Origin: an uncultured Candidatus Saccharibacteria bacterium
GTDB lineage: Bacteria; Patescibacteriota; Saccharimonadia; CAILAD01; GCA-016700035
Direction of reading: 5' to 3'
DNA length: 58,517 nt
Assembly (NCBI GenBank): GCA_964583675.1
Contig: CAZOVH010000004.1
Coordinates: 39,275-97,791 of the forward strand
Below, piece after piece: positions 8,565-30,302 of this stretch. The position numbers and the translations under genes were made by a program. The notes beneath the pieces are model-generated. The model did not search any database. It was not told where the DNA came from and saw nothing but the letters and a program-made list of their open reading frames with translations. Position 1 is the stretch's first letter, and each line of letters opens with the position of its first letter.

Positions 8565-10697
8565 ATGGTGAATATGCGCATTTCTGCAGAAACACTCAAA
8601 CAGCTCCTTACCTCGAGCGGCAAAGTAACGCCCGAGGTGCTGCAGCAAGCTGAAACTACCGCCACGCAAACCGGTCAGCCACTTGAACAAATAGTGGTCC
8701 ATCGCCACATTATTGGTGAGCGCGAGCTGGTGGCGCTGTATGCCAAAAGCCTAAACCTTCCCTACATCGATCTTACGAATGTGAAAATTCCACGCGAGGT
8801 GCTTTCGCGCATACCAGAACGCATCGCCAAAAAATATCAGGTTGTATTGTTTGGGCAAGATGCAAAAACTGGCACCTGGCAGCTGGCGATGTCCGACCCC
8901 GAAGATGTACAAGCAGTAGATGTAATTGAAAAGCAGCTAGGTGGAAACCTGCAGGTATACGTCGCCACCCAAAGCGATGTGCTGACAGTGCTTGACCAGT
9001 ATCGTACCGGTCTGGATAACGAGATAAATAAAGCAATTCGAGAAAGCGCCGCCACGGGCCCAGCTACTACCAAGCAAGAAACTGTCACTGCTGAAGACAT
9101 TTCTGAAGACGCACCGATTGCAAAGACCGTAAATATCATTCTGGAATACGCCGTGAAGAGTGGCGCTTCGGATGTACACATCGAACCGCGCGAATCAATC
9201 GTGCAGATTCGCTATCGCATCGACGGGATTTTGCGTGAATCGATGACGCTCCCCCGCCAAATTTTGCCAGCGGTTGTGAGTCGCATTAAGATCCTCTCAA
9301 ACCTGAAGATCGACGAACATCGAGTTCCGCAAGACGGACGCTTTAAGGCGACAATTGGCTCTAAAACTGTTGCCGTTCGTGTCGCTACCCTGCCCGTGAT
9401 GGAAGGCGAGAAAGTGGTAATGCGTATCTTAAACGAGTCTACGAAAGCTGCGACCCTAGAAGAACTCGGCTTTTCCGGACAAGCGCTGAAGTCTATCAAA
9501 GACGGTATGAAACAGCCCGATGGCATGATCCTCGTAACTGGCCCAACCGGTGCTGGTAAATCTACTACTCTTTATAGCGTGCTAACACTCATGAACACTC
9601 CGAGCGTGAACATTTCTACCATCGAAGATCCGGTGGAATACCGCATTCCGGGCGTTAATCAGACTCAAGTGAATACTCAGGCCGGTATGACGTTCGCGAA
9701 CGGCCTGCGCGCACTATTGCGTCAAGATCCGAACGTAATTATGGTTGGTGAGATTCGTGATGCCGAGACTGCCAACCTTGCCGTGCAAGCAGCTCTCACC
9801 GGCCACACCGTACTTTCTACCCTGCACACCAACAACGCGGCCACGACTTTGCCACGACTTCTAGACATGAACATTGAGCCTTTCTTGATTGCCACCACTG
9901 TCAACACCGTGATTGCGCAGCGCTTGGTGCGCAAACTTTGTCCGAAATGTAAGACCCCATACACCCCAAGTGGTGCCCTGCTCGATGAAATTGAGTCAAC
10001 GTTTAATTTAAACCGTACTCTTGCCCACCTAAGCCCTAAAGCTAAATCAGCTGCTCCAACAGCTCCAGAAAAACCAGCCGAGACCACAGCAAATCCAGCC
10101 CCTGCTGCACCTAGGCCAATTGCCGATACCGCCCCGCCGGTTCGCAAACAAGATCCAAACCGTAAAGTTATCCCGGTGCCAGAAAATCTGGACTTAGAGC
10201 GTCGCAGCATCTTAGACCGCATCGCTCAAGACCCAAATATTATCGACCGCCCATCTGGTGATGGTGATGACAGCTCAATTGGCTTGCCGCCAGAAGAAGC
10301 TAATCTGACACTCCCGCCCAAACCCGCAGAAGCAGGCGCCGCGAAGATTCAGCAAATTGCCGAAAAACCGGAGGAAAAGCCTACAAAAGAAGTTGATTCA
10401 CTCGATGAAATGCCACCGGCTAGCACGCCAAATACAAGCGCCGAAACGCTTGTTCTATACCGCGCCGTGGGCTGCAAGCAATGTGGTAATAGCGGCTTCT
10501 CTGGCCGTATGGGAATTTACGAAGTGCTTGATGTATCCGCAGAAATCGGCACACTCATTACCTCCAAAGCAACAGCTAACGAAATCCAAAAAACAGCAGT
10601 TGAAAAAGGCATGACCACTATGCAGGAAGACGGCCTAGAAAAAGCACTTCAGGGTCTCACCACCATTGAAGAAGTCCTACGCGTGACTCGCGAATAA
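8565..10697 (+). CDS. pilB: type IV pilus assembly ATPase PilB (GspE family) with a large low-complexity insertion
   Basis: T2SSE_N-like N-terminus, Walker A GPTGAGKSTT, Asp/His boxes, CPKC ... CKQC tetracysteine motif. The start could instead be the ATG at 8574. Confidence 0.9.
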   Translation: MVNMRISAETLKQLLTSSGKVTPEVLQQAETTATQTGQPLEQIVVHRHIIGERELVALYAKSLNLPYIDLTNVKIPREVLSRIPERIAKKYQVVLFGQDAKTGTWQLAMSDPEDVQAVDVIEKQLGGNLQVYVATQSDVLTVLDQYRTGLDNEINKAIRESAATGPATTKQETVTAEDISEDAPIAKTVNIILEYAVKSGASDVHIEPRESIVQIRYRIDGILRESMTLPRQILPAVVSRIKILSNLKIDEHRVPQDGRFKATIGSKTVAVRVATLPVMEGEKVVMRILNESTKAATLEELGFSGQALKSIKDGMKQPDGMILVTGPTGAGKSTTLYSVLTLMNTPSVNISTIEDPVEYRIPGVNQTQVNTQAGMTFANGLRALLRQDPNVIMVGEIRDAETANLAVQAALTGHTVLSTLHTNNAATTLPRLLDMNIEPFLIATTVNTVIAQRLVRKLCPKCKTPYTPSGALLDEIESTFNLNRTLAHLSPKAKSAAPTAPEKPAETTANPAPAAPRPIADTAPPVRKQDPNRKVIPVPENLDLERRSILDRIAQDPNIIDRPSGDGDDSSIGLPPEEANLTLPPKPAEAGAAKIQQIAEKPEEKPTKEVDSLDEMPPASTPNTSAETLVLYRAVGCKQCGNSGFSGRMGIYEVLDVSAEIGTLITSKATANEIQKTAVEKGMTTMQEDGLEKALQGLTTIEEVLRVTRE

Positions 10698-10708
10698 GGA
10701 GTCGATAC

Positions 10709-11926
10709 TTGGAAACCTACACCTACCAAGCTCACTCGCATAACGGCCAGATAATTAGCGGCTCCCAACAGGCAAGCTCAAAAAAAGAAGTTGTCGACTC
10801 CCTGCTTGCAAAGGATATGACGCCAGTTTCGATTGAAGCTACGAGTGATTCGAGTGTTGGTAAAAAAATAAAAAACCTCCTGCCGCACGGCCGCGTATCG
10901 ATGAAAGAGCGTGTGATATTTTCGCGCCAGTTTGCCACCATGATTGGTGCCGGCATACCAATCGCCCGATCTCTTTCGATTCTAAAAACTCAGACTTCCA
11001 ATAAAACGCTTGCGGCCGCGCTTGAGACCATTGCGCATGACGTAGAATCTGGCTCAACCCTCTCAGATAGCATTGCCAAATTCCCGAAGATTTTTAGCCC
11101 GGTTTATATCTCAATGGTTCACGCCGGTGAGATTGGCGGGATTTTAGATGACGTCTTAAATCGTTTGGCCGATCAAATGGAGAAAGACTCTGAGTTAGTC
11201 AGTAAAGTCCGTGGCGCCATGGTCTATCCTGGTCTCATCTTTGTAGTGATGGTGGCGGCACTCATCTTCATTATGACAGTTGTGGTGCCTCAGCTTGAGG
11301 TGGTATTTGATGCCGTCGACACCGAGCTACCATGGAACACTCAACTGTTGCTTAACCTATCTGCTACCATGCGCTCCCAAGGTATACTCATTGGCATTGT
11401 TGCCGTCGCAGCAGTTTTCTTTTTTCTGCGCGTCGCTAAAAAGAACCAAAAACTTCGCCGTGGCCTGCACCGCCTATATCTCAAGATTCCTGTCTTCGGT
11501 ATGGTTATTCGCAAGATAAATATTGCCCGGTTTGCGCGAACCTTTGGAGCTCTCCTAGGTGCAGGTATCCCCGTTTTGGATGCGCTTAAGGTTGTGAGCG
11601 ACTCCCTTTCAAACATCATCATGCAAGATGAACTCAAAGCCGCATCAACCGCCGTTCGAAATGGAGGCAGCATCGCGAAATCATTAAAGTCGAGCAAAGT
11701 CTTTCCGGTGATTGTGCCAGAGATGATCGCGATTGGTGAAGAAACTGGTGAACTCGAAAAAATCCTTACGAAGCTTGCAGATTTTTACGACAAAGAAGTG
11801 CAATCATTGGTCGCAAATCTCTCGGCCATCATCGAGCCGATGATGCTGATTGTGATGGGTAGCTTGGTTGGTTTTATTATCGTCAGCGTAATTGGTCCGC
11901 TGTATCAGTTGACGAGCGGCTTCTAA
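10709..11926 (+). CDS. pilC: type IV pilus platform protein PilC (GspF family)
   Basis: Two T2SSF repeats and 3 TM segments. TTG start, 7 nt after AGGAG. Confidence 0.9.
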   Translation: METYTYQAHSHNGQIISGSQQASSKKEVVDSLLAKDMTPVSIEATSDSSVGKKIKNLLPHGRVSMKERVIFSRQFATMIGAGIPIARSLSILKTQTSNKTLAAALETIAHDVESGSTLSDSIAKFPKIFSPVYISMVHAGEIGGILDDVLNRLADQMEKDSELVSKVRGAMVYPGLIFVVMVAALIFIMTVVVPQLEVVFDAVDTELPWNTQLLLNLSATMRSQGILIGIVAVAAVFFFLRVAKKNQKLRRGLHRLYLKIPVFGMVIRKINIARFARTFGALLGAGIPVLDALKVVSDSLSNIIMQDELKAASTAVRNGGSIAKSLKSSKVFPVIVPEMIAIGEETGELEKILTKLADFYDKEVQSLVANLSAIIEPMMLIVMGSLVGFIIVSVIGPLYQLTSGF

Positions 11927-11941
11927 CCTGTTGGGAGCGAG

Positions 11942-11970
11942 TTGACCGCTAAACATAAGCGCAATATAAT
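11942..11970 (+). promoter_or_regulatory. sigma-70-type promoter for the pilin gene
   Basis: TTGACC, a 17-nt spacer, then TATAAT. Confidence 0.6.
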
Positions 11971-12016
11971 TTAACCATCATTATCGAATTAATAATCGGA
12001 GGATAATCCTTACGTC

Positions 12017-12427
12017 ATGCAATTAGCAATCCGCAAGCAAAAGGGCTTCACACTGCTCGAACTGCTCATCGTTATCGTGATCATTGGTATTTTGATCGCA
12101 CTGGTTCTCCCGAACCTCATTAACGGACCAATTCGCGCTCGTGACGTCCGTCGAAAAGAAGACTTGAATGCCATTTCGAGTGGTCTCGAGCAATACTACA
12201 ACGATAACCAAGCCTACCCAGCCGCCATGGCCGACCTTACTGCTGGAAGCTACCTCAAGGAAGTACCAAAGGATCCACGCAGTAACGCAGATTATACCTA
12301 CACTGCTCTGCCAGCCACCGGACCTCCTTACACCAGCTTTACCCTTACTGCTACTCTTGAAAACAAGAATGACAAGGACGTAAAGTCTGGCACTACAGAC
12401 ACCTACGAAGTAGTGAACAAGCAATAA
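12017..12427 (+). CDS. type IV (major) pilin with class III signal peptide
   Basis: MQLAIRKQKG/FTLLELLIVIVIIGIL: prepilin cleavage/methylation motif with Glu+5. Confidence 0.9.
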   Translation: MQLAIRKQKGFTLLELLIVIVIIGILIALVLPNLINGPIRARDVRRKEDLNAISSGLEQYYNDNQAYPAAMADLTAGSYLKEVPKDPRSNADYTYTALPATGPPYTSFTLTATLENKNDKDVKSGTTDTYEVVNKQ

Positions 12428-12447
12428 GCTTTTTCTTCTCACGTACT

Positions 12448-12473
12448 AAAAGCCACTCACCGAGTGGCTTTTA
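12448..12473 (+). terminator. rho-independent terminator after the pilin gene
   Basis: AAAGCCACTC-accg-GAGTGGCTTT, a 10-bp perfect stem with a short T tail. Confidence 0.65.
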
Positions 12474-12480
12474 GGTTACT

Positions 12481-12514
12481 GCTTATGCTTGTACAATAGA
12501 GGTACAACATAAGC
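12481..12514 (+). promoter_or_regulatory. second strong hairpin between pilin and pilM (attenuator/processing candidate)
   Basis: GCTTATGCTTGTAC-aatagag-GTACAACATAAGC: 13 bp with one bulged C, followed by TTATT and the pilM ATG 12 nt later. Confidence 0.45.
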
Positions 12515-12525
12515 TTATTACACAC

Positions 12526-13602
12526 ATGTATCTCCCCGTCATCTACAAAAACCGGGCCGTCTTTGGCCTCGATATTGGCCAGCACGCTGCCAAGTTTTTG
12601 GAGTTAAAACAAACCGGACACAGCTACCGACTTATTGGTATGGGTTCGGCCCCACTGCAACCCGACACCATCATTGAGGGAGTCATTGCCGAACCGGAGC
12701 ATCTAGCCGAAATGATTAGAGCTGGACTCAAATCCCCTTCAGTCGGCCATATCCGCGCTAAGGCAGTTGCGGTTGGCTTGCCACAAGCCCATTTATTTAC
12801 CCGGTCAATTACACTGCCAGCCATGAAGCGAGAGAAAATTGCCGAGGCAGTGCAATGGGAATCTCAGCAGTACATCCCTATGCCGATGAGCGATCTTTAT
12901 ATGGACTTTGAAATTATTGAAGAAAAAAAAGACGCTTCTGGCGCCGTGAAAGAATATGAGATTTTTCTAGTTGCTGCTCCGCGCGCAATTATTGATAGCT
13001 ACATGAAACTTTTAGAATTTCTCAAACTTACGCCACATAGCTTCGAAACAACTTTAGCTGCCAACATTCGCGCCCTACATCCAGCCAGCGAGCTCAATAA
13101 AACCGTGCTTGTTCTAGATGTCGGCTCTACCGCAACAGATATGGCCATCGTTACCGATACTATTAAAGTATCGACTACCACTCCTTTTGGTGGCGATCAA
13201 GTAACCAAGATTTTAGCAACTCGCCTAAAAGTTTCAGAAGAACATGCGAATGAGATAAAAGCCAAGTTTGGCGTGGCTGAGTCGGGACTTAAAGAAAAAG
13301 TTGATGCCGCATTAAGCTCGGCAATTACTCAACTCACCACCGAAATTCAAAAGCTCGTAAAATATCATCAAGAACGCACAGCCGACGAGCATCATCGGCA
13401 AGTTGAGCAACTCTTACTCACCGGTGGTGCATCACATATGCCAGGCTTTGCTGAGTTATTGGCGCAAAAAACTCAGCTACCTGTAGATATCACATCCGCA
13501 TGGGATCACCATAAAGTAAAACTCGCCTCACCATTACCTCAAGATGTTACATCTGGTTTTACTACGGCCTTTGGCCTGGCTCTGCGAGGGTTTATTTCAT
13601 GA
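12526..13602 (+). CDS. pilM: type IV pilus assembly protein PilM (actin-like ATPase fold)
   Basis: GLDIG N-terminal phosphate-1 motif, LTGGAS near the C-terminus, and position upstream of pilN/pilO. Confidence 0.85.
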   Translation: MYLPVIYKNRAVFGLDIGQHAAKFLELKQTGHSYRLIGMGSAPLQPDTIIEGVIAEPEHLAEMIRAGLKSPSVGHIRAKAVAVGLPQAHLFTRSITLPAMKREKIAEAVQWESQQYIPMPMSDLYMDFEIIEEKKDASGAVKEYEIFLVAAPRAIIDSYMKLLEFLKLTPHSFETTLAANIRALHPASELNKTVLVLDVGSTATDMAIVTDTIKVSTTTPFGGDQVTKILATRLKVSEEHANEIKAKFGVAESGLKEKVDAALSSAITQLTTEIQKLVKYHQERTADEHHRQVEQLLLTGGASHMPGFAELLAQKTQLPVDITSAWDHHKVKLASPLPQDVTSGFTTAFGLALRGFIS

Positions 13603-14153
13603 TTAACTTACTCCCGCCAGAGATTAAAGAGCAGCGACGCTATTCTCAATACAATCGAACACTACTGAATGCAATCATCGGTGTGACTATTTTGATTATT
13701 GTTACAGCCGGAGCATTTTATGCAACCTGGCTTATATTAAACAAAGAAGAGGATCGGCTTGCGCAAGACATCAATCAAGAGGGTGTTAAATCGAAATCGT
13801 ACGGGGAAATCGAGGATCAAGCCAAAGCCCTAGCCGACCGACTCGCCACCATAGAAAAAATTCAAACAAATCGCACCCGGTACCCGGTACTACTCGAAGC
13901 CCTTGCAGAGGCAACCCCGCCTGATGCTTACGTAACCAGCTTTGCTGTGGATGCTGCCGGTAAAACTATGACCCTCACAGCCTATGCCACAACCGATCAA
14001 GCAGCCGCTAGCTTTAAAAATGCACTCGAAGCCTCTCCAAGATTTAGCTCAGCCGCCATACAGGTGCTTGAGCCAGCCACAGATCCATACTCTGGCAAAG
14101 CTACAAACCGCGTAACTTTTGTAGTTGGCCTCGAACCGGGAGCCCTCAAATGA
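13599..14153 (+). CDS. pilN: type IV pilus assembly protein PilN
   Basis: MINLLPPE start motif, a single TM and a coiled segment. ATGA overlap with pilM. Confidence 0.8.
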   Translation: MINLLPPEIKEQRRYSQYNRTLLNAIIGVTILIIVTAGAFYATWLILNKEEDRLAQDINQEGVKSKSYGEIEDQAKALADRLATIEKIQTNRTRYPVLLEALAEATPPDAYVTSFAVDAAGKTMTLTAYATTDQAAASFKNALEASPRFSSAAIQVLEPATDPYSGKATNRVTFVVGLEPGALK

Positions 14154-14707
14154 AAGCTAAGCTGTTCTTCTTTTTCTTATGTGCAGTTTTGGCAATCCTA
14201 ACTGTCGTTGGAGCAAGCGGCTTTGCTTGGGGACGCAACCAGCTAATCACACAAAAAGAAGCAGTCAATGAGAAAAAACTAGAGCTCGACAATAACCAAA
14301 AGCGAATTGATCAACTCATCCAACTTTCCAGGCGCTACGAGACTGCGAAATCTCGTGCCGATGAGATTGATCGTGCCCTCCCTCGCACTTCGCAGCAAGC
14401 CGAAATACTGCTCGAACTTAAATCTGCTGCTGCAGAAACCGGCGTAATAATTGCTAGCGTGCAATTTACCGGTGCCGCAACGCCAACCAAGGCCGAGACA
14501 AATCAGGCCACCGCTCAGCAAGATCTTTACGTTCTGCCCATGTCACTGCGTGCAGCTGGTAGTTATCCGCAAATTATTGCTTTCCTAAATCGACTCGACA
14601 CACTAAGTCGTTACAACTCTGTCACATCACTTACTGCAAATAAGACTCAAACCAACCCCAACACGCTGGATGTAAGCATGTCGCTTGTGGCGTACCTAAA
14701 ACCATAG
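14150..14707 (+). CDS. pilO: type IV pilus assembly protein PilO
   Basis: N-terminal TM, a coiled coil, and a ferredoxin-like C-terminal part. 4-nt overlap with pilN. Confidence 0.7.
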   Translation: MKAKLFFFFLCAVLAILTVVGASGFAWGRNQLITQKEAVNEKKLELDNNQKRIDQLIQLSRRYETAKSRADEIDRALPRTSQQAEILLELKSAAAETGVIIASVQFTGAATPTKAETNQATAQQDLYVLPMSLRAAGSYPQIIAFLNRLDTLSRYNSVTSLTANKTQTNPNTLDVSMSLVAYLKP

Positions 14708-14713
14708 GAGATA

Positions 14714-15025
14714 ATGATGAACTTAAGTATGAAGCTCGATATAAATACCGTAAAAACCCTCAGTAAAAAGCTTGGGAAATCAATTGGCATTGTACTTGTA
14801 TTGCTCGTCGGTGGCTTTGTTATCTATACAGGGTACTTTCTCACCAACCTGCTCTACACCACTGGTGACACCACAGCGCTAGAGAAAAAACAGGCCGAAT
14901 CGAGTGCCGCTAAACAGGTGCGATTTAACGAAAAAACGCTTCAATCACTCGATGCTCTCACACCAGCCGGAACTACACCCAACACCCAAGATGTCGGTAA
15001 AGAAGATCCGTTTGCACCAAACTAA
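14714..15025 (+). CDS. small single-TM protein, last gene of the pilus operon
   Basis: 103 aa, one TM helix, 6 nt after pilO. No recognisable family. Confidence 0.5.
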   Translation: MMNLSMKLDINTVKTLSKKLGKSIGIVLVLLVGGFVIYTGYFLTNLLYTTGDTTALEKKQAESSAAKQVRFNEKTLQSLDALTPAGTTPNTQDVGKEDPFAPN

Positions 15026-15689: not shown

Positions 15690-16739
15690 CTATTTTTCTA
15701 GCTCCAAGGTAGTTTGCGGTGCAGAACTTTCCGATGGCGGGATGAGACCAAGGTGCCGATAGCCTTTCTCGCTAACCGTTCGACCACGCGAGGTGCGCCG
15801 TAAAAGTCCTTGCTGAATAAGGTAGGGCTCCACAACGTCTTCGATCGTCTGACGCTCTTCGGAGAGCGCGGCGGCTAGAGCCTCTACCCCGGCTGGTCCA
15901 CCATTATAGTGATCAATAAGCGTCTGCAAAATTCGACGATCTGCACTGTCTAGGCCCAATTCATCAACCTCCAACAAAGCGAAAGCCGCTGTGAGCACAT
16001 CACTATCAACCACCCCATTATTGTGTACTTCAGCATAATCACGAATTCGCCTGATAAGTCGATTGGCAATACGTGGTGTCAGCCTTGAGCGCGCCGCAAG
16101 TTCCGTCAGCGCTTCGTCATCAACTTGAATCTTCATGAGTCGCGAAGTTCTTGCCAAAATTCCCGATATTTCCTCTGGAGTATAGAACTCTAAGCGCTGC
16201 ACAATACCAAACCGATCGCGCAGCGGCCCAGACAATGCGCCAAACCGAGTGGTAGCACCAATAATCGTAATCGGCGCCAGCTCCAGACGTAGCGACTGGG
16301 CAGAAGGCCCCTTGCCGAGCATAATATCAATCACATAATCTTCCATAGCCGGATACAAAATCTCCTCTACCGTGCGGCTCAAGCGATGAATTTCGTCAAT
16401 AAATAGCACATCACCCGCACTAAGATTTGTCAGCAAGCTCGCCAAATCACCAGCACGCTCGATTGCCGGACCAGAGGTTATCTTCAGTTGACCGCCCAGC
16501 TCGTTGGCTACAATATGGGCCAGCGTAGTCTTACCAAGCCCCGGTGGGCCATACAGAAGCACATGATCAAGCGCATCACCACGTTTTTTTGCGGCCGCAA
16601 TCGCCAACGTGAGCGCGTCAATCGCCTGACGCTGTCCAATGTATTCGTTAAAGCTTCCCGGGCGTATCTTTTCCTCAAACTGAGTCTCATCTGGAGTGGC
16701 CTCAGGTCGTACCAAGTCGTCTTGCCGCTCGATCATCAA
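15690..16739 (-). CDS. ruvB: Holliday junction branch-migration helicase RuvB
   Basis: GPPGLGKTT Walker A, DEIHRL Walker B, and a winged-helix C-terminus. Confidence 0.95.
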   Translation of the reverse strand: MMIERQDDLVRPEATPDETQFEEKIRPGSFNEYIGQRQAIDALTLAIAAAKKRGDALDHVLLYGPPGLGKTTLAHIVANELGGQLKITSGPAIERAGDLASLLTNLSAGDVLFIDEIHRLSRTVEEILYPAMEDYVIDIMLGKGPSAQSLRLELAPITIIGATTRFGALSGPLRDRFGIVQRLEFYTPEEISGILARTSRLMKIQVDDEALTELAARSRLTPRIANRLIRRIRDYAEVHNNGVVDSDVLTAAFALLEVDELGLDSADRRILQTLIDHYNGGPAGVEALAAALSEERQTIEDVVEPYLIQQGLLRRTSRGRTVSEKGYRHLGLIPPSESSAPQTTLELEK

Positions 16740-17293
16740 CCAATCTCCCGTAGTGCCTGGCGCACGCGCTCAGATGTGTCCAACGTAGCATCAACACTCT
16801 TTAAGGCAGCCTGAGCCTGATCAGCGCGATAACCCAATTGCACGAGCGCCTGCATGGCTGGGTCGGATGTTTTTACACTGGCAGCCACATCACCAGACAC
16901 TAGCTTGCCGCGCAGCTCTAAGATGATCCTCTGCGCAGTCTTTCGCCCCACTCCACTTACCTGACTAAGGCGCGCAATTTCTTCAGCATCAATAATTGTG
17001 GTGAGCGTCTCAGCGTCATACGTAGATACGATTGCATGTGCCATTTTTGCACCTACACCGTTAACACTAATTAGCTTTCGGTACAGCTGCCGCTCAGCTT
17101 CAACTCGAAAACCATACAGATCGTAGCTATCTTCGCGAATATTTTCGGCAATAAAAAATGCTACCTTCTCACCAAGCTCCACCGAAGCAATATCACGAAC
17201 GGGCACGATTAACTCATAGCCGACCCCATGGACGTCTAAAACTATTCGATCGTAATCACGGGTGGCCACCGCCCCCTCCAAGCGTGCTATCAT
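16736..17293 (-). CDS. ruvA: Holliday junction DNA-binding protein RuvA
   Basis: MIARLEG start, HhH motifs (VNGVG, VSGVGRKTAQRI). 4-nt overlap with ruvB. Confidence 0.9.
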   Translation of the reverse strand: MIARLEGAVATRDYDRIVLDVHGVGYELIVPVRDIASVELGEKVAFFIAENIREDSYDLYGFRVEAERQLYRKLISVNGVGAKMAHAIVSTYDAETLTTIIDAEEIARLSQVSGVGRKTAQRIILELRGKLVSGDVAASVKTSDPAMQALVQLGYRADQAQAALKSVDATLDTSERVRQALREIG

Positions 17294-17397
17294 GTCTGCA
17301 TTATCTCACATTCTCGTGCAAAAGGTCTTGCTCACGAACCTTTTACGGGCGTAGTATGCAAATAAGCATGTACCTTACACGGAAAGCGGGAGGGCAA

Positions 17398-17700
17398 ATG
17401 GCCATCGACGATGTTGAGGCTACCGGTGTTGTCGAAGATACCGACAGCGATGCAACCTGGCAGATGTTCGCCAACTGCCTAGGAGCCGATCCAGATCTGT
17501 TCTTCCCCGAGCGTGGTGCATCCACCAAGGAAGCGAAGTCCGTCTGCCAGGGGTGCGTCGTCCGCGAAGACTGCCTGGAATACGCCCTTGCTCAAGGTGA
17601 GAAGTTCGGCATCTGGGGTGGCCTCTCTGAGCGTGAGCGTCGTCGCATCCGCCGCCAGCGTGCTTTGACACGAGCCTACCAGCAATCGCGTCAGATCTGA
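17398..17700 (+). CDS. WhiB-like (Wbl) Fe-S transcription factor
   Basis: C-x26-CxxCx5C (ANC...CQGCVVREDC), the GIWGG turn and an Arg-rich tail. GGGAGGG lies 5 nt upstream of the ATG at 17398. G+C is about 58% by hand count. Confidence 0.85.
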   Translation: MAIDDVEATGVVEDTDSDATWQMFANCLGADPDLFFPERGASTKEAKSVCQGCVVREDCLEYALAQGEKFGIWGGLSERERRRIRRQRALTRAYQQSRQI

Positions 17701-17731
17701 CCCGACATCACCTACTTTCACGCCGCGTTCT

Positions 17732-18214
17732 CTAAGAGCGCGGCATATTTATGTGAGCAGAATGTGTCAATGCAATGGCCAGTGCATCGGCAGCATCATC
17801 CGGTTTTGGAATAGTATTCAGCTTTAACCGTGTTTTTACCATTTCTTGCACCTGCTTTTTTGTAGCTTTACCGTAGCCAGTAATCCCCTGTTTTACTTGC
17901 AAGGGTGTATATTCTGCGATCGGCACACCACCCTGCTGCAATACCAAAAGCGCCACACCACGAGCTTCACCCACCGTCATTGCTGTAGTTACATTCGTCG
18001 AAAAAAATAATTTCTCAACTGCTACCTGTTGCGGTTGATGTTTTTTTACGAGCTCGGTTAAATCTTCATACAAGATTGCCAGCCGCTCGGCGTGCGTTAA
18101 GTCCTTATGCGTTGTAACAACCCCACAATCCACCAGCGTACACACACCTTTTTCGATCGCAATCACCCCAAAGCCAGTGGTGGCAATGCCTGGATCAATA
18201 CCGAGAATAATCAT
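17732..18214 (-). CDS. ruvC: Holliday junction resolvase RuvC
   Basis: MIILGIDPG catalytic Asp motif, 160 aa. Confidence 0.9.
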   Translation of the reverse strand: MIILGIDPGIATTGFGVIAIEKGVCTLVDCGVVTTHKDLTHAERLAILYEDLTELVKKHQPQQVAVEKLFFSTNVTTAMTVGEARGVALLVLQQGGVPIAEYTPLQVKQGITGYGKATKKQVQEMVKTRLKLNTIPKPDDAADALAIALTHSAHINMPRS

Positions 18215-18747: not shown

Positions 18748-19653
18748 CTATTCAGGCGAGATTTTGGAAATCTGCCAACGACTGAGCGGCAAATACCCAC
18801 CACGGTGGTCGCCATCTGGCGCCGTGATCTCCAAAAGGATTTCTGCTTCTGGATGCGCTCGACGATCCGGATTGATGATCTTGCCGCGAACCTCCTTCAG
18901 ATTACGAGCACCGTCCTGATACCGCACGGTACGAACTTCGCCAAACGGAATCCTTGGATCGAGATCCAGCGTCGTGAAGCCCCCTTCGTAATCAGGATTT
19001 CGCTCCTGGAATGCCGCACCATGTGCCAAATTGGTCACAATCGGTCGTGAAGCCAACTCATCAGGCAGCTCCCCGACTGCAAAGCTTGGAATGTCCAGCT
19101 GCACACCTGCCGTGAAACGAGGAACGCCAAGCGTCTCAGCGGTTGTGGCTCGCGAGCGATTAACAATGCACGCAATACCAACCACGTCACCGCCGGCTGC
19201 CCCCACCACGTTCGCAGTCTTGACGGCTGAACCGCCAGTCGTGATGACGTCTTCCAGCACCAAGACACGACGCCCATCCACAGCCTCGGCAAAACCAGCA
19301 CGGTCCAGCACGAAATCGTCACGCTCCTTGTCTGCCCAGACGGTCTTGAGCGTCCAGTACTGCGAGTGGAAAGCGAAAGCCGAAACCAGATAGACTCCGC
19401 CAACCGCCGGCGCAATCACCACTTCTGGCTTCTCCTCGGTTGAACAACCTTCGAACCACCGCATGCACCAATGCCCAAGAACTGGCTTGAGACTGGCGGG
19501 ACGTACGAAGAGACGATCACAGTCCACGTACGTGTCACCATGACGACCCGACTTGTAAACGAAGTGCTCGCCTGTGATAACGGCCTTCGCCAGCGTAAGC
19601 TCATGCCTGATAGCATGCTCATGACGCGGGATAGCAGCTTCAGCTGTGCTCAT
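18748..19653 (-). CDS. pyrE: orotate phosphoribosyltransferase-like PRTase with about 100-aa C-terminal extension
   Basis: FVYKSGRHG...Y and the PRPP loop VLVLEDVITTGGS. It is next to pyrF and has high GC3. Confidence 0.65.
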   Translation of the reverse strand: MSTAEAAIPRHEHAIRHELTLAKAVITGEHFVYKSGRHGDTYVDCDRLFVRPASLKPVLGHWCMRWFEGCSTEEKPEVVIAPAVGGVYLVSAFAFHSQYWTLKTVWADKERDDFVLDRAGFAEAVDGRRVLVLEDVITTGGSAVKTANVVGAAGGDVVGIACIVNRSRATTAETLGVPRFTAGVQLDIPSFAVGELPDELASRPIVTNLAHGAAFQERNPDYEGGFTTLDLDPRIPFGEVRTVRYQDGARNLKEVRGKIINPDRRAHPEAEILLEITAPDGDHRGGYLPLSRWQISKISPE

Positions 19654-19865
19654 TGGATGATTCCCTTCTCTCGGAAAAATTCGTCTGGGATTACGCCCTC
19701 GCCGAGCAGCTCAGCCCACAGGCATCCCAACGTATCGCCAGGATCCAATTCGAGCGCACGAACGCCGTCGAGAACATCTCCACTCAACACACCGGAGCAT
19801 GCTTCAATGAGTTTGTCGACCGATGGCAGTCTCTGCAAGCTTTTGCTTACATCGTCAGAGGACAC
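19650..19865 (-). CDS. small acidic hypothetical protein, translationally coupled to the PRTase gene
   Basis: 71 aa, ATGA overlap at 19650-19653, high GC3 in this frame. Confidence 0.45.
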   Translation of the reverse strand: MSSDDVSKSLQRLPSVDKLIEACSGVLSGDVLDGVRALELDPGDTLGCLWAELLGEGVIPDEFFREKGIIQ

Positions 19866-19964: not shown

Positions 19965-20918
19965 CTAGACATCATTACTGACATCCGGAACGATTCGGGC
20001 CAAGTTAATGACATTGTTCATTCGCACCGCTTCGGCTCGCGCCGCTTCTGCGAATGACTGGTCATCGAGAGCGTCGGCATAGAGCACCGACCGCGAGGCG
20101 TTGATGATGAAACCGTCGCCACGCGAGTTCATGCCGTTCTGCACTGCCAGCTCGAGGCTGCCACCCTGCGCACCAACTCCGGGGATGAGGATAGGAATAT
20201 CGTCACCGACCAACCCACGAACCACTCTCAGCTCGTCTGGAACGGTTGCCCCAACCACGACTGCGCAGTTACCGTTGTGGTTCCAGTTGGCTCGAACAGA
20301 GCCAGCAAGGTACTGGTAAAACGGAACCTTCGGCTGGTCATAACCATTCATGTAGGCAGACACAGCTGAAGGGATGTCCAGGGCGACAGCCTCCCCATAA
20401 CCCTCAATGGTGACTTGCCTGTCCTGGAACTCATCAGCGCCAGGATTGCTGGTACGAACCAACACAATCACACCACGATCTTCGCGTTCGAGAAAAGGCT
20501 TCATCGCCACGTGACCCATGTACGGATGCACAGTCACCGCATCTGCATCCAGAATGTCGAACGCGTACTGTGCGTACCCAAGATTGGTGTTGCCAATGTC
20601 GGCCACCTTCGCATCAAGAATGACCACCACATCAGGGTAATGACGTCGGATGTAAGTCACAACCTGCTCAAGCATCTCCAGACCATGGGCGCCGTGCCGC
20701 AAGAAGAACGCCCAGTTGGGCTTATACGCGCATACCACATCGTATGTGGCATTGATGATCTCCTTGAGATAGGGCACCAAAACACCCGCCGAACTCTCAC
20801 GATCTGTCATGTGGCTCGGTGCCTGCTTAAAGATCTTGTCCATGTCGGGATCCAGCCCAACACAGACAAACCTGCCCTCGCCCCACTGAGCCTGCAAACG
20901 ATCGTTGAACCGTCCCAC
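19965..20918 (-). CDS. pyrF: orotidine-5'-phosphate decarboxylase, long (type 2) form
   Basis: VCVGLDPD and ILDAKVADIGNT signatures, 317 aa. G+C is about 58% by hand count. Confidence 0.85.
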   Translation of the reverse strand: MGRFNDRLQAQWGEGRFVCVGLDPDMDKIFKQAPSHMTDRESSAGVLVPYLKEIINATYDVVCAYKPNWAFFLRHGAHGLEMLEQVVTYIRRHYPDVVVILDAKVADIGNTNLGYAQYAFDILDADAVTVHPYMGHVAMKPFLEREDRGVIVLVRTSNPGADEFQDRQVTIEGYGEAVALDIPSAVSAYMNGYDQPKVPFYQYLAGSVRANWNHNGNCAVVVGATVPDELRVVRGLVGDDIPILIPGVGAQGGSLELAVQNGMNSRGDGFIINASRSVLYADALDDQSFAEAARAEAVRMNNVINLARIVPDVSNDV

Positions 20919-21732: not shown

Positions 21733-23142
21733 TTATACCTGTTGAAGCGATTTTTTTGAAGCCCGCCGAGCACCGAATAGCATAAATACGCCAAGTCCCG
21801 CAAAACTTGCCCACATTGTAAAGCTACTCATCGCAATGCTCATACTTGCATTTGGGATACGCGCAAGCACCTGAATGGTTTGCAAAATAGACAATAAAAA
21901 CCAGTTTGCCACGAATGCAATACCCCCAGAGAACGGCAGTGCGAGTACGCTAAACGCGGCCACAAGAAAACTTACAAGCATGGCAACTGGAATAAACGGC
22001 AGGATCACCACATTTGCTAGTGGAGCTATCGTAGAAAAACTGCCAAACACATGCGCAATGAGAGGCGCCGTAGCCAGATGAGCAGCCAGCGAGACTGCAA
22101 AAATCTCCCAGAACAGCTGAAACTTGCCCGGATTTTTTGGCATAAACACCGGCGCCAAAAATACCACGCCAGCAAGAGCCAAAACGGAGAGCTGCCACGA
22201 AAGATCTGTATATAAGAATGCCGGACTCCAAGCAGTCATCGCAAAAATTGTCGCTGCCAGAGCTACTCCAACTGAAAGCTTCTTGTTTTGAGTACCTACA
22301 ATGAGTACTAAGGTAGTCATGACTGCAGCCCGCATGACAGAAGATGTTGCGCCCGTCATAAGTACGTAAAAACCAACCAACGCCAATATCGGAATGACCG
22401 TCCTTACTCGCAGCTTGCCACGCAAAAACGTCAGTACCAGGGCCATGATAATTGTCAGATTAAAGCCAGAAACCGCCACAATGTGCGTTAACCCAGTTTG
22501 CTGTGTTGCCTGCCGGACATCATCTGGAAGCTGACTAGATCCACCAAATAACAGCCCGCTCGCAAAACTTGCAGCTGCTGGCGAAAGCGATCGTTCGAGC
22601 CCTTGTTGCATCGTGCGCTTAATCCGAACTGGCAACGACGGAACAGCGTTCACCGTAGCAACTTCTGCATACCATACCTGCGCATTCGCACGCCCCAATG
22701 CCCTGCCAAGCTTGCCTTGTACTCGGACAGTCTGACCTTCAAAAATACCACTGGAGAGCGTTTTTACTTTTACTAAGCCGGATATTTTCTGGCCGTCCAG
22801 GCGCACATCCTGCATGTAGAATTCGTAGAGCTTATCGTCATTCCAAAACGGTGTTCCTTGCACCACGCCAACCAGTTGGTGCTTTTGGCCAATATAACTG
22901 CGAGCATCTGTCTTGCCTGGCGGAACAAATGTCATCTGCCCACGCAACAAGCCAGCACACAGAAAGATTGCACAGAGAGCAATGTAGCCCACCCAACTTT
23001 TTACAAAATACAAAATTATGACTGAGCTTACTGCTAGCCATACCCAAAAGAGTTGTGAGAAGCCAGTTGCAAATTGCGTGGCAAGCCCCAGGCCAAAAAG
23101 CCACGCCAAAACACAGACCCATATCTGCTTTGTTCGTTTCAT
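21733..23142 (-). CDS. comEC: ComEC/Rec2 DNA-uptake channel (competence domain only, no metallo-beta-lactamase domain)
   Basis: Multi-TM protein with a DUF4131-like OB region and the GLTHIVAVSGFNLTI motif. Confidence 0.8.
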   Translation of the reverse strand: MKRTKQIWVCVLAWLFGLGLATQFATGFSQLFWVWLAVSSVIILYFVKSWVGYIALCAIFLCAGLLRGQMTFVPPGKTDARSYIGQKHQLVGVVQGTPFWNDDKLYEFYMQDVRLDGQKISGLVKVKTLSSGIFEGQTVRVQGKLGRALGRANAQVWYAEVATVNAVPSLPVRIKRTMQQGLERSLSPAAASFASGLLFGGSSQLPDDVRQATQQTGLTHIVAVSGFNLTIIMALVLTFLRGKLRVRTVIPILALVGFYVLMTGATSSVMRAAVMTTLVLIVGTQNKKLSVGVALAATIFAMTAWSPAFLYTDLSWQLSVLALAGVVFLAPVFMPKNPGKFQLFWEIFAVSLAAHLATAPLIAHVFGSFSTIAPLANVVILPFIPVAMLVSFLVAAFSVLALPFSGGIAFVANWFLLSILQTIQVLARIPNASMSIAMSSFTMWASFAGLGVFMLFGARRASKKSLQQV

Positions 23143-24539: not shown

Positions 24540-24565
24540 CCCTCGCCTCGTGCGGGGGTTATTTA
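24540..24565. terminator. bidirectional terminator between the HEMGH gene and rimK
   Basis: CCCTCGC-ctcgt-GCGGGGG (7 bp including one G-U), T-rich on both sides. Confidence 0.55.
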
Positions 24566-25468
24566 CGCGCCAATTTTGTCGCGGCGGCGCTTACCTTTAG
24601 TGCGCTCAACAATAAAATCAATCATCACACCAGCAATATCTTTACCCGTCTGTGCTTCAATGCCCTCAAGGCTTGGTGAGCTATTTACTTCCAAAACCAA
24701 TGGACCACGCGTAGAACGAATAAGATCTACTCCGGCAATCGACATGCCGAGCGTTGAAGCCGCTTTGAGCGCCACATTTTGCTCTTTTTTTGAGAGCTCA
24801 ACCGGTGCCGATTCGCCACCGCGATGCAAGTTAGAACGGAACTCGCCTTCCTGACCCTTGCGCATCATCGCACCAACAATTTTATCGCCAACCACAATAA
24901 CGCGAATATCAGCGCCATCAGCTTCTTCGATAAACTCCTGCAAGATAAAATTTGCGTTAATTGAGTTAAAGGCTTCGATTACCGACTTGGCGGCTTTTTT
25001 AGTTTCCGCCAGAACCACGCCCTTGCCCTGCGTGCTTTCCAAAAGTTTTACCACCACCGGCGCACCACCAACCAACTCTAAAAGTTCAGCTGCATCCGAA
25101 GTCTGTGAGGCAAAGACGGTTTTAGGAATCCCGACACCAGCGCGAGCCAAAAGCTGCATGGAGCGCAGCTTATCACGCGAACGCACAAGGGCCAGCGAGC
25201 TGGTTGCAGTATAGGCACGCATCATTTCAAACTGCCGGAGTACCGCAGCGCCGTAGTTCGTGTAACGAGCCGCAATACGTGGAATCACCGCTTCTACTTC
25301 ATCAACCGAGCGATTTTCCCAATGTACGGAAGGGTTACGACTTTCGATTGCCATATACGCCTTAGTGTAATCAACCACCACGGGAGTATGGCCTTTCTTT
25401 TTTGCCGCTTCAACCAAACGTTTGGTTGAATAGTTATTTCGGCCAGCCGATAGAATTGCGATTTTCAT
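24563..25468 (-). CDS. rimK: RimK-type alpha-L-glutamate ligase (ATP-grasp)
   Basis: MKIAILS..., the typical RSNLHRGG motif, and 301 aa as in canonical RimK. Confidence 0.85.
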   Translation of the reverse strand: MKIAILSAGRNNYSTKRLVEAAKKKGHTPVVVDYTKAYMAIESRNPSVHWENRSVDEVEAVIPRIAARYTNYGAAVLRQFEMMRAYTATSSLALVRSRDKLRSMQLLARAGVGIPKTVFASQTSDAAELLELVGGAPVVVKLLESTQGKGVVLAETKKAAKSVIEAFNSINANFILQEFIEEADGADIRVIVVGDKIVGAMMRKGQEGEFRSNLHRGGESAPVELSKKEQNVALKAASTLGMSIAGVDLIRSTRGPLVLEVNSSPSLEGIEAQTGKDIAGVMIDFIVERTKGKRRRDKIGA

Positions 25469-26853
25469 GATTTTGTAATCTCCCCTCGGGATAGTTCAAC
25501 ATTAACTAAATAATTTCCACGCAACAATTTGCGCCCCAAAAGCATTGGTACCTTTTGGCTTTGACGATTCGTAAGAGTAAACTGCGTTTCGTGGTCACGG
25601 CCTTGGATACGTACTATTGTACGAATCTTATAGCGATCCTGCCACTGTCCGTTAGAACTTTTCACCTGAACAGCGACAAAATCACGACTGACACAGGTTA
25701 CATATTCTTCTGAGTGAGTTCGTCCACCAACAAAATGCGGCACCTTAAAATGAAGCTCATCGCCATCTTTTGTGTGTTTTATTTTGATACTCTCCGCATG
25801 CAGCGCGCCACTGTATGCGCCCGTATCAGTCTTGGCGGCCACATCAACAATACCAAACTCGGGCAAACCAACGAGCTCAATGCGGCCGATGATTTTTTTC
25901 GGTAATTTAGATGAAGCTTTACGATTATAGCGCTTAGCGATAGATCGCTTTAGATATGCAACAAAGCCCGGGATGTTCTGATCAATAAATGCGCCGGTTA
26001 CAATTTGTGAACCCTGATTAACTTCCAACACAGCTGCACGCCCAGAATTTTTATCCACAATAACATCAACGCCCGAAACTGAGAGATCCATAGCTTCGGC
26101 AGCGCGAACAGCTAGATCAAGTATCTTCTCGGGTGTCTTTTTTTCCTCTACAAGTTGAGCTTGTCCACCTGCAGATGTGTTATTGAGGTGAGATTTGCCC
26201 GAGCCTTTGCGAAAAATAATCATACCTGTCTCGCCGCCATACACCTGAACTCGCCAATCTCCATCGTTTGGAGCAAAATCCTGAATAATCCAATCAATCT
26301 GCGTCCCCTCAACCAACGACTTAGCCTGACGTCGAGTTTTTGCAAAATGATTGTCTTTGCCCTTTTGCCCAATGGTCGATTTAATGACAGCCGGATATTG
26401 CACAATTTCTGAAGCCAAAACATCCTGAATGTGTTTGTGCGATGCGTACATGGTACGCAGTGTCGGCACGCGTGATGCCCACAACTTCATTGTGGTAACC
26501 AGCTTGTTTGCAGCTCCTTTTTGCTCCACGGCCGCATCAATAAACGGCACACCCTTTGCCCTCAGGTAAATGGCCAGCGCTGCGGCAACATCCGGCATAC
26601 CTTCCCAGCCTTTAAAGTATACAAAATCGTAATCCGCAGGGTCTTTTTTACTTGTCCAGTCATATACCTGCGCTTTGCGCTTATCCACTACAAACACTAA
26701 GTCTTCCAGTGCCATTACTTCGCCATCCGCAAAACCAAAGTCTGCATATTTTTTTAAGCGACGCACAAAACCCGCCCCCCGAGTTGAGCCAGGTGCGGCG
26801 GCTTTTTGAAAAATAAACAGTACGCGTGGCTGCGATAGCGCTGGCTTAGTCAT
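25465..26853 (-). CDS. divergent ATP-grasp ligase fused to a C-terminal retropepsin-like peptidase (RimB/'ATP-dependent zinc protease' type)
   Basis: ATP-grasp core (PNDGDWRVQVYGGE, HLNNTSAGG, LEVNQGS) plus a C-terminal KTDTGAYSG ... NRQSQKVPMLLGRKLL module. ATGA overlap with rimK. Confidence 0.7.
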   Translation of the reverse strand: MTKPALSQPRVLFIFQKAAAPGSTRGAGFVRRLKKYADFGFADGEVMALEDLVFVVDKRKAQVYDWTSKKDPADYDFVYFKGWEGMPDVAAALAIYLRAKGVPFIDAAVEQKGAANKLVTTMKLWASRVPTLRTMYASHKHIQDVLASEIVQYPAVIKSTIGQKGKDNHFAKTRRQAKSLVEGTQIDWIIQDFAPNDGDWRVQVYGGETGMIIFRKGSGKSHLNNTSAGGQAQLVEEKKTPEKILDLAVRAAEAMDLSVSGVDVIVDKNSGRAAVLEVNQGSQIVTGAFIDQNIPGFVAYLKRSIAKRYNRKASSKLPKKIIGRIELVGLPEFGIVDVAAKTDTGAYSGALHAESIKIKHTKDGDELHFKVPHFVGGRTHSEEYVTCVSRDFVAVQVKSSNGQWQDRYKIRTIVRIQGRDHETQFTLTNRQSQKVPMLLGRKLLRGNYLVNVELSRGEITKS

Positions 26854-27787
26854 GCTTTTGCACCCCGGCTTTTACACTCATAAACTCCAACATGGCCTGC
26901 ATTTTGCGCTCTGGCTCGGCACCAAGCTGAATTGCGGGTGCCTCATTTACCTCGAGCACGACATGCTCACCGGTGTCTTTATTAATGAGCAAATCGAGAC
27001 CACAAAACTGTTCTCGCCCCACGAGTTTGGCGGCACGAATACTGTCGTTCTTTTGCGCGTCAGTTAGTACATCTGCACTAAAAAACTCAGCATCCGCATC
27101 TTGTGAGGTGTTATTGAGATGAGTTGTATCATCCTGACGGGCGCGCTTAATGACAAGCTTAATTTCTCCGCCAAGAATTAATACTCGATAATCGAAATCA
27201 TTCGGAATAAACGGTTGCGCGATAAATGTGTCGCTCTTATTTTCATCCAGTATGCGCACCAGTTCATCATAAGTATTTACGAGAAAGTTATTATTGCCAC
27301 CAAAAGCCTGAATACTTTTTAATACAAATGGAAACGCGAAAGGTGGGCGCTTCTTAAAGAGTTTTTTAAATTGGCGTACAGAAGTTGTAATGCCGTCGGG
27401 CAATGGAAGATTTTGATCGGCCAGCAATGCTTGCTGCCCAAGCTTAGACAATGGCGTAAAACGACTTACTTCTTGGGTAAAGTACTCGATGTCATGACGC
27501 TCGAGATACTTTGCAGCCGCCAACGATTGCTGCTGAGCTTTGTGGAACAGTTCAAAATACACCAAATCAAATTCACTCAGATCCATCCCAGTCATCGACT
27601 CAACAATGCGCATACTGCCATCCTCGAAATATATCTGGAGATCCTTGAGAGAACCTTGATAAAATTCCATACCAAAATCGCCCGCGCGTTCCGCCATAGG
27701 GTCGAACAGGAGTTTATAGTAGTCGGTTTTATGCTTCCGAAAACTAAAAAATACGAGAACTTTTTTCTTGGATTGGCTCTTCATCAT
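26846..27787 (-). CDS. divergent ATP-grasp ligase, paralogue of the N-terminal part of the 462-aa protein
   Basis: PNDFDYRVLILGGE, HLNNTSQDA and LEVNEAP align with the neighbour's motifs. 8-nt overlap downstream. Confidence 0.7.
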   Translation of the reverse strand: MMKSQSKKKVLVFFSFRKHKTDYYKLLFDPMAERAGDFGMEFYQGSLKDLQIYFEDGSMRIVESMTGMDLSEFDLVYFELFHKAQQQSLAAAKYLERHDIEYFTQEVSRFTPLSKLGQQALLADQNLPLPDGITTSVRQFKKLFKKRPPFAFPFVLKSIQAFGGNNNFLVNTYDELVRILDENKSDTFIAQPFIPNDFDYRVLILGGEIKLVIKRARQDDTTHLNNTSQDADAEFFSADVLTDAQKNDSIRAAKLVGREQFCGLDLLINKDTGEHVVLEVNEAPAIQLGAEPERKMQAMLEFMSVKAGVQKHD

Positions 27788-30239: not shown

Positions 30240-30268
30240 TTGACATAAGAAAAATAGGGGTCTACAAT
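30240..30268 (+). promoter_or_regulatory. near-consensus promoter for the 30303-31713 gene trio
   Basis: TTGACA, a 17-nt spacer, then TACAAT. The -10 box overlaps the ATG at 30267, which argues for the ATG at 30303 as the real start. Confidence 0.55.
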
Positions 30269-30302
30269 GCCTTCAAATCGTACCTTCCAAGATTGGATTG
30301 CT

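Follow-up and report, generated by a model that had tools for sequence, protein, structure and literature searches.

A gene for a WhiB-like (Wbl) iron-sulphur protein lies between ruvC and ruvA, on the strand opposite to both, in a 58,517-nucleotide stretch of contig CAZOVH010000004.1 from an uncultured Candidatus Saccharibacteria bacterium. This whole stretch is called the window below, and the gene is called wbl. Our reading, to which we give a probability of roughly 0.7, is that the product is a functional WhiB/WhiB2-type Wbl protein that acts by cluster-dependent docking on the sigma factor. Its gene would have been captured from Actinobacteria by the ancestor of a family-level Saccharibacterial clade and inherited vertically since.

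Wbl proteins were called exclusive to Actinobacteria and actinophages in papers of 2018, 2023 and 2026 (PMC6282962, PMC10243135, PMC13013590). The literature still says what an earlier note on this DNA, made from the letters alone, had stated. The window protein falls outside this distribution, as its host is Saccharibacterial. Full-text literature searches returned no report of Wbl in Saccharibacteria or Patescibacteria; the matches concern host Actinobacteria or unrelated topics. Some of the Wbl proteins concerned are already labelled automatically as "WhiB family" in the databases, and Saccharibacterial Wbl sequences appear to have been deposited without being discussed.

The locus shows that a Wbl protein has long been kept under selection in a phylum other than Actinobacteria, one with cultivated members that live attached to Actinobacteria. 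It offers a natural test of whether the mechanism of Wbl binding to sigma region 4 operates on a non-actinobacterial RNA polymerase. It also adds a candidate redox- or nitric oxide (NO)-sensing regulator to very small genomes (approximately 645 kb in close relatives). Likely host organisms for an uncultured family of Saccharibacteria are thereby suggested among the Acidimicrobiia, such as the Microthrixaceae and Iamiaceae that occur in fresh water and activated sludge. Finally, the "Actinobacteria-only" premise is corrected for those cases in which Wbl genes serve as taxonomic markers in metagenome binning.

The wbl gene, its product and its genome

The open reading frame (ORF) at 17398-17700 is confirmed, by profile and motifs, as a complete and canonical Wbl protein. 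The product matches Pfam Whib (PF02467) with 88.8 bits (E 3.4e-25, cut-off 23.6 bits) over profile positions 1-64 of 65. All parts of the Wbl signature listed in the earlier note are present. The four cysteine ligands follow the pattern C-Xn-C-X2-C-X5-C, with C27 in the ANC motif and C50, C53 and C59 in CQGCVVREDC. The GIWGG turn occupies residues 71-75 and RRRIRRQR residues 81-88, and a basic C-terminal helix starts at R79. The four cysteines together with G71, W73, G74 and G75 are invariant in 16/16 aligned sequences, 13 of them Saccharibacterial.

The best match of the product in the PDB is WhiB of Streptomyces venezuelae (8DY7_H, 103 bits; 8DY7/8DY9 are the WhiA-WhiB-RNA polymerase complex). 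WhiB1 (60 bits), WhiB4 (53), WhiB3 (49) and WhiB7 (41) come behind it. On sequence similarity, the window protein is a member of the WhiB/WhiB2 subfamily. Alignment to 6ONO and 5OAY gives W21, F35, F36 and W73 as its aromatic patch, which align with W3, F17, F18 and W60, the patch by which WhiB1 binds sigma region 4 (PMC13013590). No class of residue that is known to count in Wbl proteins has been lost. None of the NCBIfam models matched the product, and a search of the window with a Wbl profile made from 120 homologous sequences gave no second Wbl.

The coding sequence (CDS) of wbl has a G+C content of 59.7% and a G+C at third codon positions (GC3) of 0.644, against averages of 48.5% and 0.461 (standard deviation 0.068) for the genes of the window. 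Among these 56 genes it ranks first in G+C and second in GC3 (z = 2.7), in line with the higher G+C relative to the ruv surroundings that the earlier note had reported. However, the pyrE-like gene, pyrF and two other window genes are GC-rich as well, and the composition is not unique to wbl. The coordinates (Table 1) agree with the earlier description of wbl as splitting ruvC from ruvA-ruvB on the opposite strand, and the GGGAGGG that was taken for a ribosome-binding site does stand just before the ATG. Its purine-rich GGAG core is kept among relatives.

Judged by its homologues, the genome that carries wbl is Saccharibacterial and not actinobacterial; the earlier note had likewise taken its other features as not actinobacterial. 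The name Candidatus Saccharibacteria bacterium is given to DnaK homologues with identities of 90, 82 and 80%, and Patescibacteria group bacterium to RuvA homologues with 91, 41 and 42%. The G+C content of the window is 48%, versus 56-75% in the actinobacterial loci with the closest WhiB genes. It is these names and this composition that point to a Saccharibacterial window. DnaK relatives at 90-97% identity lie on contigs of 644-645 kb. An Rfam scan found tRNAs only, and no rRNA, in the window.

Some labels in the databases do not agree with these assignments. One DnaK (P0274) that is 97% identical to that of the window is named 'Candidatus Dependentiae', and freshwater contigs from metagenome-assembled genomes (MAGs) with an Acidimicrobiia-type WhiB (L011, L046, L062, L077) go under the names Bifidobacterium breve, Verrucomicrobiales or Acidobacteriota. 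Errors of binning or naming are the probable cause.

The order ruvB-ruvA/wbl/ruvC is repeated, with its neighbours, in at least 13 contigs (L001, L081-L092) from ENA, NCBI, Logan, JGI and GTDB, and the exact wbl protein is present on 15 contigs. A contig that is chimeric at the wbl junctions, which the earlier note had named as a possible undoing of the case, is excluded by these repeated junctions.

Descent, spread and source of wbl

Comparison of the window with its close relatives gives a synonymous divergence (dS) of 0.44-0.50 for wbl and of 0.35-0.73 for ruvA, ruvB and ruvC in the same pairs. The ratio of non-synonymous to synonymous divergence (dN/dS) of wbl is 0.15-0.19 for close relatives and 0.09 for L091. 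Because dN/dS is low and dS is like that of the flanks, wbl is inherited vertically with its flanking genes and is under purifying selection. The wbl at the ruv site is an old, domesticated locus and not a fresh insertion.

The extent of the clade was read from metagenome loci gathered by RuvC and from contigs gathered by RuvA homologues along a gradient of divergence. A single antisense wbl lies between ruvC and ruvA in the loci at 96-91% RuvA identity (L081-L092, L001). A single wbl occupies the same place at 86% (L220), 81% (L221), 72% (L222), 62% (L224) and 53% (L226), and two tandem wbl genes are found there at 67% (L223, L093). The gene is missing at 55% (L225), where a gap of 336 bp holds no ORF, and from all loci at 47% or below. 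In the latter, ruvC and ruvA are 58 nt apart or have unrelated membrane or hydrolase genes between them. WhiB is also absent from the full gene and Pfam tables of Southlakia epibionticum, a cultivated Saccharibacterium of the mouth, and the ruvA-ruvC junction of this species (SEML1_0772-0774) holds a transglycosylase-domain gene (PMC10633639 supplements).

The presence of wbl down to 53% RuvA identity, with its absence from more distant loci and from Southlakia epibionticum, marks it as a derived character that is shared within one Saccharibacterial clade (DnaK identity of approximately 89% or more). On the same comparison it is neither a phylum-wide feature nor a strain-level insertion. The earlier note had proposed looking for the gene between ruvC and ruvA in related genomes, and had allowed that Wbl homologues might be widespread and vertically inherited in this lineage. 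Relatives down to 53% do carry the gene, those at 55% (L225) and at 47% or below do not, and descent is vertical within a broad Saccharibacterial clade that falls short of the phylum.

The tandem pairs (L093:2023-2600 and L223:4302-4911) are strongly diverged, with all cysteines and the G[IV]WGG turn kept. The L093 pair groups together in 81/100 bootstraps, and the arrangement looks like a lineage-specific duplication. In other Patescibacteria (L098, L100, L105, L108, L148, L152) the ruvC-ruvA junction holds unrelated cargo. The types of cargo seen at the junction are a pair of multi-pass membrane proteins, a membrane protein of 446 amino acids (aa), a hydrolase-like protein of 261 aa and a transglycosylase. 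Insertions seem to have entered this junction repeatedly in Patescibacteria.

The phylogeny that the earlier note had called for was built by neighbour joining (NJ) from 79 sequences and 87 columns with 100 bootstraps. The window subclade is monophyletic in 81/100 bootstraps and has a purely actinobacterial sister in 84/100, and Streptomyces WhiB is placed outside the group of the window in 99/100. From W21 to the C-terminus, C-tail included, the window protein differs from Acidimicrobiia WhiB (L002, L023) at 8/80 positions (90% identity). The gene has approximately 82% nucleotide identity to a Microthrixaceae gene over approximately 206 nt. The top viral homologue of the protein is 72% identical. 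No phage or mobile-element genes were found beside wbl, the neighbours in every relative being ruvABC, a bPH_2 protein, pil genes, pyrE/pyrF, yebC and comEC.

By these comparisons, wbl has its origin in an actinobacterial WhiB of Acidimicrobiia type. The donor was probably a cell rather than a phage, since the best phage copy reaches 72% against the cellular 90% and the locus is free of phage genes. The acquisition from a host or a host phage that was suggested earlier is thus upheld as to its actinobacterial origin (by the 90% identity and the sister group). The phage route is the less likely one, and the event was not recent, as wbl is found down to 53% RuvA identity.

Action of the protein and competing explanations

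In the scheme that we favour, the ancestor of a family-level Saccharibacterial clade would have captured wbl from Actinobacteria, among which the nearest living relatives are Acidimicrobiia (Microthrixaceae, Iamiaceae). The gene would then have inserted between ruvC and ruvA and passed down vertically. Its product is predicted to hold a [4Fe-4S] cluster by C27, C50, C53 and C59. Wbl proteins dock on region 4 of the primary sigma factor with their cluster pocket and with the aromatic patch around a His-Pro pair (PMC13013590, PMC6954389). In the same way the window protein would dock, as a monomer, on the His-Pro-Ser of the Saccharibacterium's own primary sigma factor, at the C-terminal end of region 4. 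Once docked, it would tune transcription according to the state of its cluster (oxygen, NO or redox). By analogy to WhiB/WhiB2, cell-division genes may be among its targets, whether or not WhiA acts as a partner, and the protein may work independently of WhiA in the manner of WhiB1 or WhiB7. We infer that the window protein is a cluster-dependent modulator of the Saccharibacterium's own holoenzyme.

The earlier note had tied this docking to the actinobacterial primary sigma factor. The His-Pro-Ser motif is not specific to Actinobacteria: it is found in SigA of Mycobacterium tuberculosis (...KLRHPSRSQ...) and equally in RpoD, the sigma-70 of Escherichia coli (...KLRHPSRSE...). A non-actinobacterial sigma factor is therefore no obvious obstacle to docking. 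RpoD of Southlakia epibionticum is essential and contains a region 4 (PMC10633639 supplements); its gene adjoins dnaG.

Several points weigh against this scheme. No rpoD of the lineage was found in the window (Pfam, approximately 50 ORFs), in 229 loci (tblastn with sigma regions 2-4) or within 10 kb past the right end of the window. The sole tblastn match to sigma among the 229 loci is on an unrelated contig of 27% GC, and the His-Pro-Ser motif is assumed for the lineage's own sigma factor. Nor did a whiA turn up in the window, within 10 kb past its right end or at related loci, and the Southlakia epibionticum tables list no WhiA (PMC10633639 supplements), so that the WhiA-dependent mode of WhiB/WhiB2 may not apply. 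The AlphaFold2 model of the product (from a 40-sequence alignment) is of low confidence, with a mean predicted local distance difference test score (pLDDT) of 50 and a predicted template modelling score (pTM) of 0.27, and has helices at the expected places h1-h4. Non-synonymous change in wbl is 5-10 times that in the ruv genes, and purifying selection is to that extent weaker. The wbl of distant relatives falls to 43-69% identity, and its function may have shifted. The alignment behind the NJ trees is short. Lastly, a single old acquisition followed by strong rate differences is possible, but the core GC3 and the closeness to Actinobacteria do not fit it easily.

These last features fit an alternative that refines the proposed explanation, and that we lean somewhat against. 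It holds that the locus is old, and that in the window subclade a newly arrived allele of actinobacterial (host) origin overwrote the resident wbl from W21 on. This allele would have entered by transformation through ComEC and the type IV pilus and then recombined within the gene, with the Saccharibacterial N-terminal tail and upstream region retained. The GC3 of the subclade wbl core is 0.64-0.79, whereas it is 0.40-0.57 in its own N-terminal tail, 0.42-0.52 in the flanks and 0.44-0.54 in other Saccharibacterial wbl cores; the actinobacterial median is 0.86. The dN of the window core to Actinobacteria is 0.056 (the mean of Actinobacteria among themselves being 0.064), compared with 0.176, 0.21 and 0.27 to the same-site genes of L221, L222 and L226. 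The subclade core changes at least at the pace of RuvB, which is hard to square with an actinobacterial near-identity that dates from the base of the clade.

Single sequences also look composite. Three proteins (P0005-P0007) join the Saccharibacterial tail MAIDDVEVSG to a core and C-tail that are approximately 98% actinobacterial consensus. The N-terminal tail (MAIDDVE.SGVV, as EISGVV or EVSGVV) and the upstream region are common to the subclade and L220, while their cores differ by 21%. The spacer from the wbl stop to ruvC ranges from 14 to 177 nt among lineages. The window holds ComEC, PilB/C/M/N/O and a ComP-like pilin, and natural competence has been shown experimentally in Saccharibacteria (PMC10633639); together these make an overwriting of the allele plausible.

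Against overwriting, four-point distances are near star-like (internal branch approximately 0.005), and the distances are accounted for just as well by lineages that differ in rate. At the nucleotide level the subclade is monophyletic in 35/100 bootstraps. A shared base bias inflates the third-position similarity of GC-rich genes, and the sequences are short (69-100 codons). Nucleotide-level trees did not decide between a single and a repeated acquisition.

A further step, rather unlikely in our judgement, would make wbl a host-tracking gene: through competence, the old resident copy would periodically be overwritten with the WhiB allele that the present actinobacterial host carries. If this were true, the sequence of wbl would report the Acidimicrobiia host lineage of an uncultured Saccharibacterium, and the regulator would stay matched to host-like signals.

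We consider it very improbable that the protein is directed at the host, as a copy of WhiB by which the epibiont interferes with the sigma-A/WhiA-dependent cell-division programme. Such mimicry would suit the unusually high identity (90-98% from W21 on) to Acidimicrobiia WhiB of a different phylum. Real phages carry the same WhiB type. The interference would resemble that of a mycobacteriophage WhiB that is reported to antagonise WhiB2. Cultivated Saccharibacteria are epibionts of Actinobacteria (PMC10633639). But the wbl product has no secretion signal or linked secretion gene, its N-terminal tail is acidic and variable, and its gene is placed among the housekeeping ruv genes. A cluster-bearing protein of 11 kDa would need to pass through two envelopes, and the drift to low identity in other lineages of the clade is unfit for an obligatory mimic.

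A mis-assembled actinobacterial fragment, or a decaying and non-functional insertion, would explain the G+C of wbl above its flanks but is rejected as next to impossible, because the same junctions recur in independent contigs of varied samples and assemblers, dS is like that of the flanks with dN/dS at 0.09-0.19, the ligands are intact across a deep clade, and conservation extends to the upstream region and to the terminator, in which a compensatory change is seen.

Locus layout and likeness to known Wbl systems

The features of the locus are collected in Table 1.

Table 1. Genes and putative signals at the ruv-wbl locus (window coordinates)
Feature	Position	Strand	Basis and remarks
ruvB	15690-16739	-	strong Pfam match; overlaps ruvA
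ruvA	16736-17293	-	Pfam RuvA_N, HHH_5, RuvA_C; divergent from wbl
divergent intergenic region, 104 bp, ruvA start to wbl start	17294-17397		conserved among relatives
weak promoter-like pair, TTGCTC and TAGTAT, 18 nt apart, upstream of wbl	17328-17333 and 17352-17357		conservation
11-nt block GTACCTTACAC in the presumed wbl leader	17370-17380		alignment; between putative -10 and ribosome-binding site
Shine-Dalgarno-like GGGAGGG	17388-17394	+	3 nt 5' of wbl ATG; read from sequence
wbl CDS (WhiB/WhiB2-type, 100 aa)	17398-17700	+	ATG 17398, TGA 17698-17700; Pfam, PDB match, dN/dS
G+C-rich hairpin, 10-bp stem	17722-17744		21 nt past wbl stop; overlaps ruvC stop codon
ruvC	17732-18214	-	Pfam RuvC, 170 bits; convergent with wbl

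An alignment of the ruvA-wbl intergenic region from 8 loci has a mean column identity of 80%, and both hexamers and the leader contain invariant columns. The hexamer pair is a conserved but weak candidate for the wbl promoter; a strict consensus scan gave no sigma-70 promoter in 17150-17850. The GTACCTTACAC block is nearly invariant across relatives in which coding synonymous sites are saturated, and might act as an operator or as an element of the leader. Inspection of the intergenic region by eye gave no convincing conserved match to a LexA box or to the WhiA motif GACAC. A LexA homologue lies at L228:5652-6284, approximately 4 kb past the right end of the window. The hairpin behind wbl is a terminator-scan match with a minimum free energy of -21.8 kcal/mol (z = -3.6). 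Relatives retain its stem, in which one G-C pair has become A-T by a compensatory change in L087, and the hairpin is probably a terminator common to the convergent wbl and ruvC.

Two sets of competence-related genes lie less than 10 kb from the ruv-wbl locus: a complete type IV pilus cluster (PilB, PilC, a pilin with a ComP_DUS-like domain and PilM/N/O; 8565-15025) and ComEC (21733-23142). Natural transformation of Saccharibacteria has been shown elsewhere to run through this machinery. A GC-richer block contains a pyrE-like phosphoribosyltransferase gene (18748-19653), a conserved ORF of 71 aa (19650-19865) and pyrF of subfamily 2 (19965-20918; TIGR02127, 207 bits). The GC3 of this block is 0.57-0.64 versus the window mean of 0.46, and it may be a second foreign, perhaps actinobacterial, segment. 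The length of the phosphoribosyltransferase varies among relatives, from 301 aa to 230-237 aa with a separate ORF of 71-91 aa, and some relatives are without pyrF. The ORFs at 57786-58307 and 30267-30839 have the highest and the fourth-highest GC3 of the window (0.655 and 0.602) and no match in Pfam or NCBIfam. Three RimK-like ATP-grasp genes stand in a row at 24563-27787, and the second of them also encodes, as a fusion, a putative ATP-dependent Zn protease domain (PF05618).

Among known Wbl genes, the chromosomal WhiB genes of Acidimicrobiia (Microthrixaceae, Iamiaceae, Aquihabitans and Ilumatobacteraceae MAGs) are the closest in the trees. Their products have the tail RRQRAL.RA.QQSR in common with the window protein, and the window clade is nested among them. 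They differ in lying in genomes of 56-75% G+C, in a median GC3 of 0.86 against 0.64 for the window gene, and in their N-terminal tails. Most of the Acidimicrobiia loci (L002-L080) also have a second, more divergent wbl approximately 1.2-1.5 kb downstream on the opposite strand, which has no counterpart in the window.

The actinophage Wbl genes (IMG/VR L172, L173) resemble window wbl in not being part of an actinobacterial chromosome. Terminase, portal and head proteins mark L173 as a genuine phage contig, and it carries the same Acidimicrobiia-type WhiB. The phage copies are set apart by an identity of 72% at best, against the cellular 90%, and window wbl is vertically inherited and has no flanking phage genes.

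A second contig labelled Saccharibacteria (L018, 45% GC) holds a different Acidimicrobiia-type Wbl at 79-1230, adjoining leuS. Like the window Wbl, it has a Pfam Whib domain (85 bits) and lies on a low-GC contig of Saccharibacterial label. Unlike it, the L018 Wbl is at another locus and on another branch, with Iamiaceae and phage L172. Its open frame reaches 300 aa further upstream, in which no Pfam domain is recognisable. The different locus and branch suggest more than one transfer, and the L018 Wbl is probably an independent acquisition.

The best-characterised counterparts are WhiB of Streptomyces venezuelae and WhiB2 of Mycobacterium tuberculosis. The Streptomyces venezuelae protein touches the DNA that lies upstream of the -35 element without sequence specificity, by the loop K37-K45 and by R67, S75, R77, E78 and R80, and it bridges to WhiA (PMC10243135). 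The corresponding positions of the window protein are RGASTKEAK (39-47), K69, S77, R79, E80 and R82. Compared with both counterparts, the window protein belongs to a Saccharibacterial host, its N-terminal 20 residues are unrelated, and no WhiA partner or RbpA context is seen at the window locus. The cysteine ligands, the FF and W aromatic residues, the FGIWGGLSERERRR segment and the DNA-contact positions are kept or conservatively replaced, and the antisense site between ruvC and ruvA is specific to the Saccharibacterial clade.

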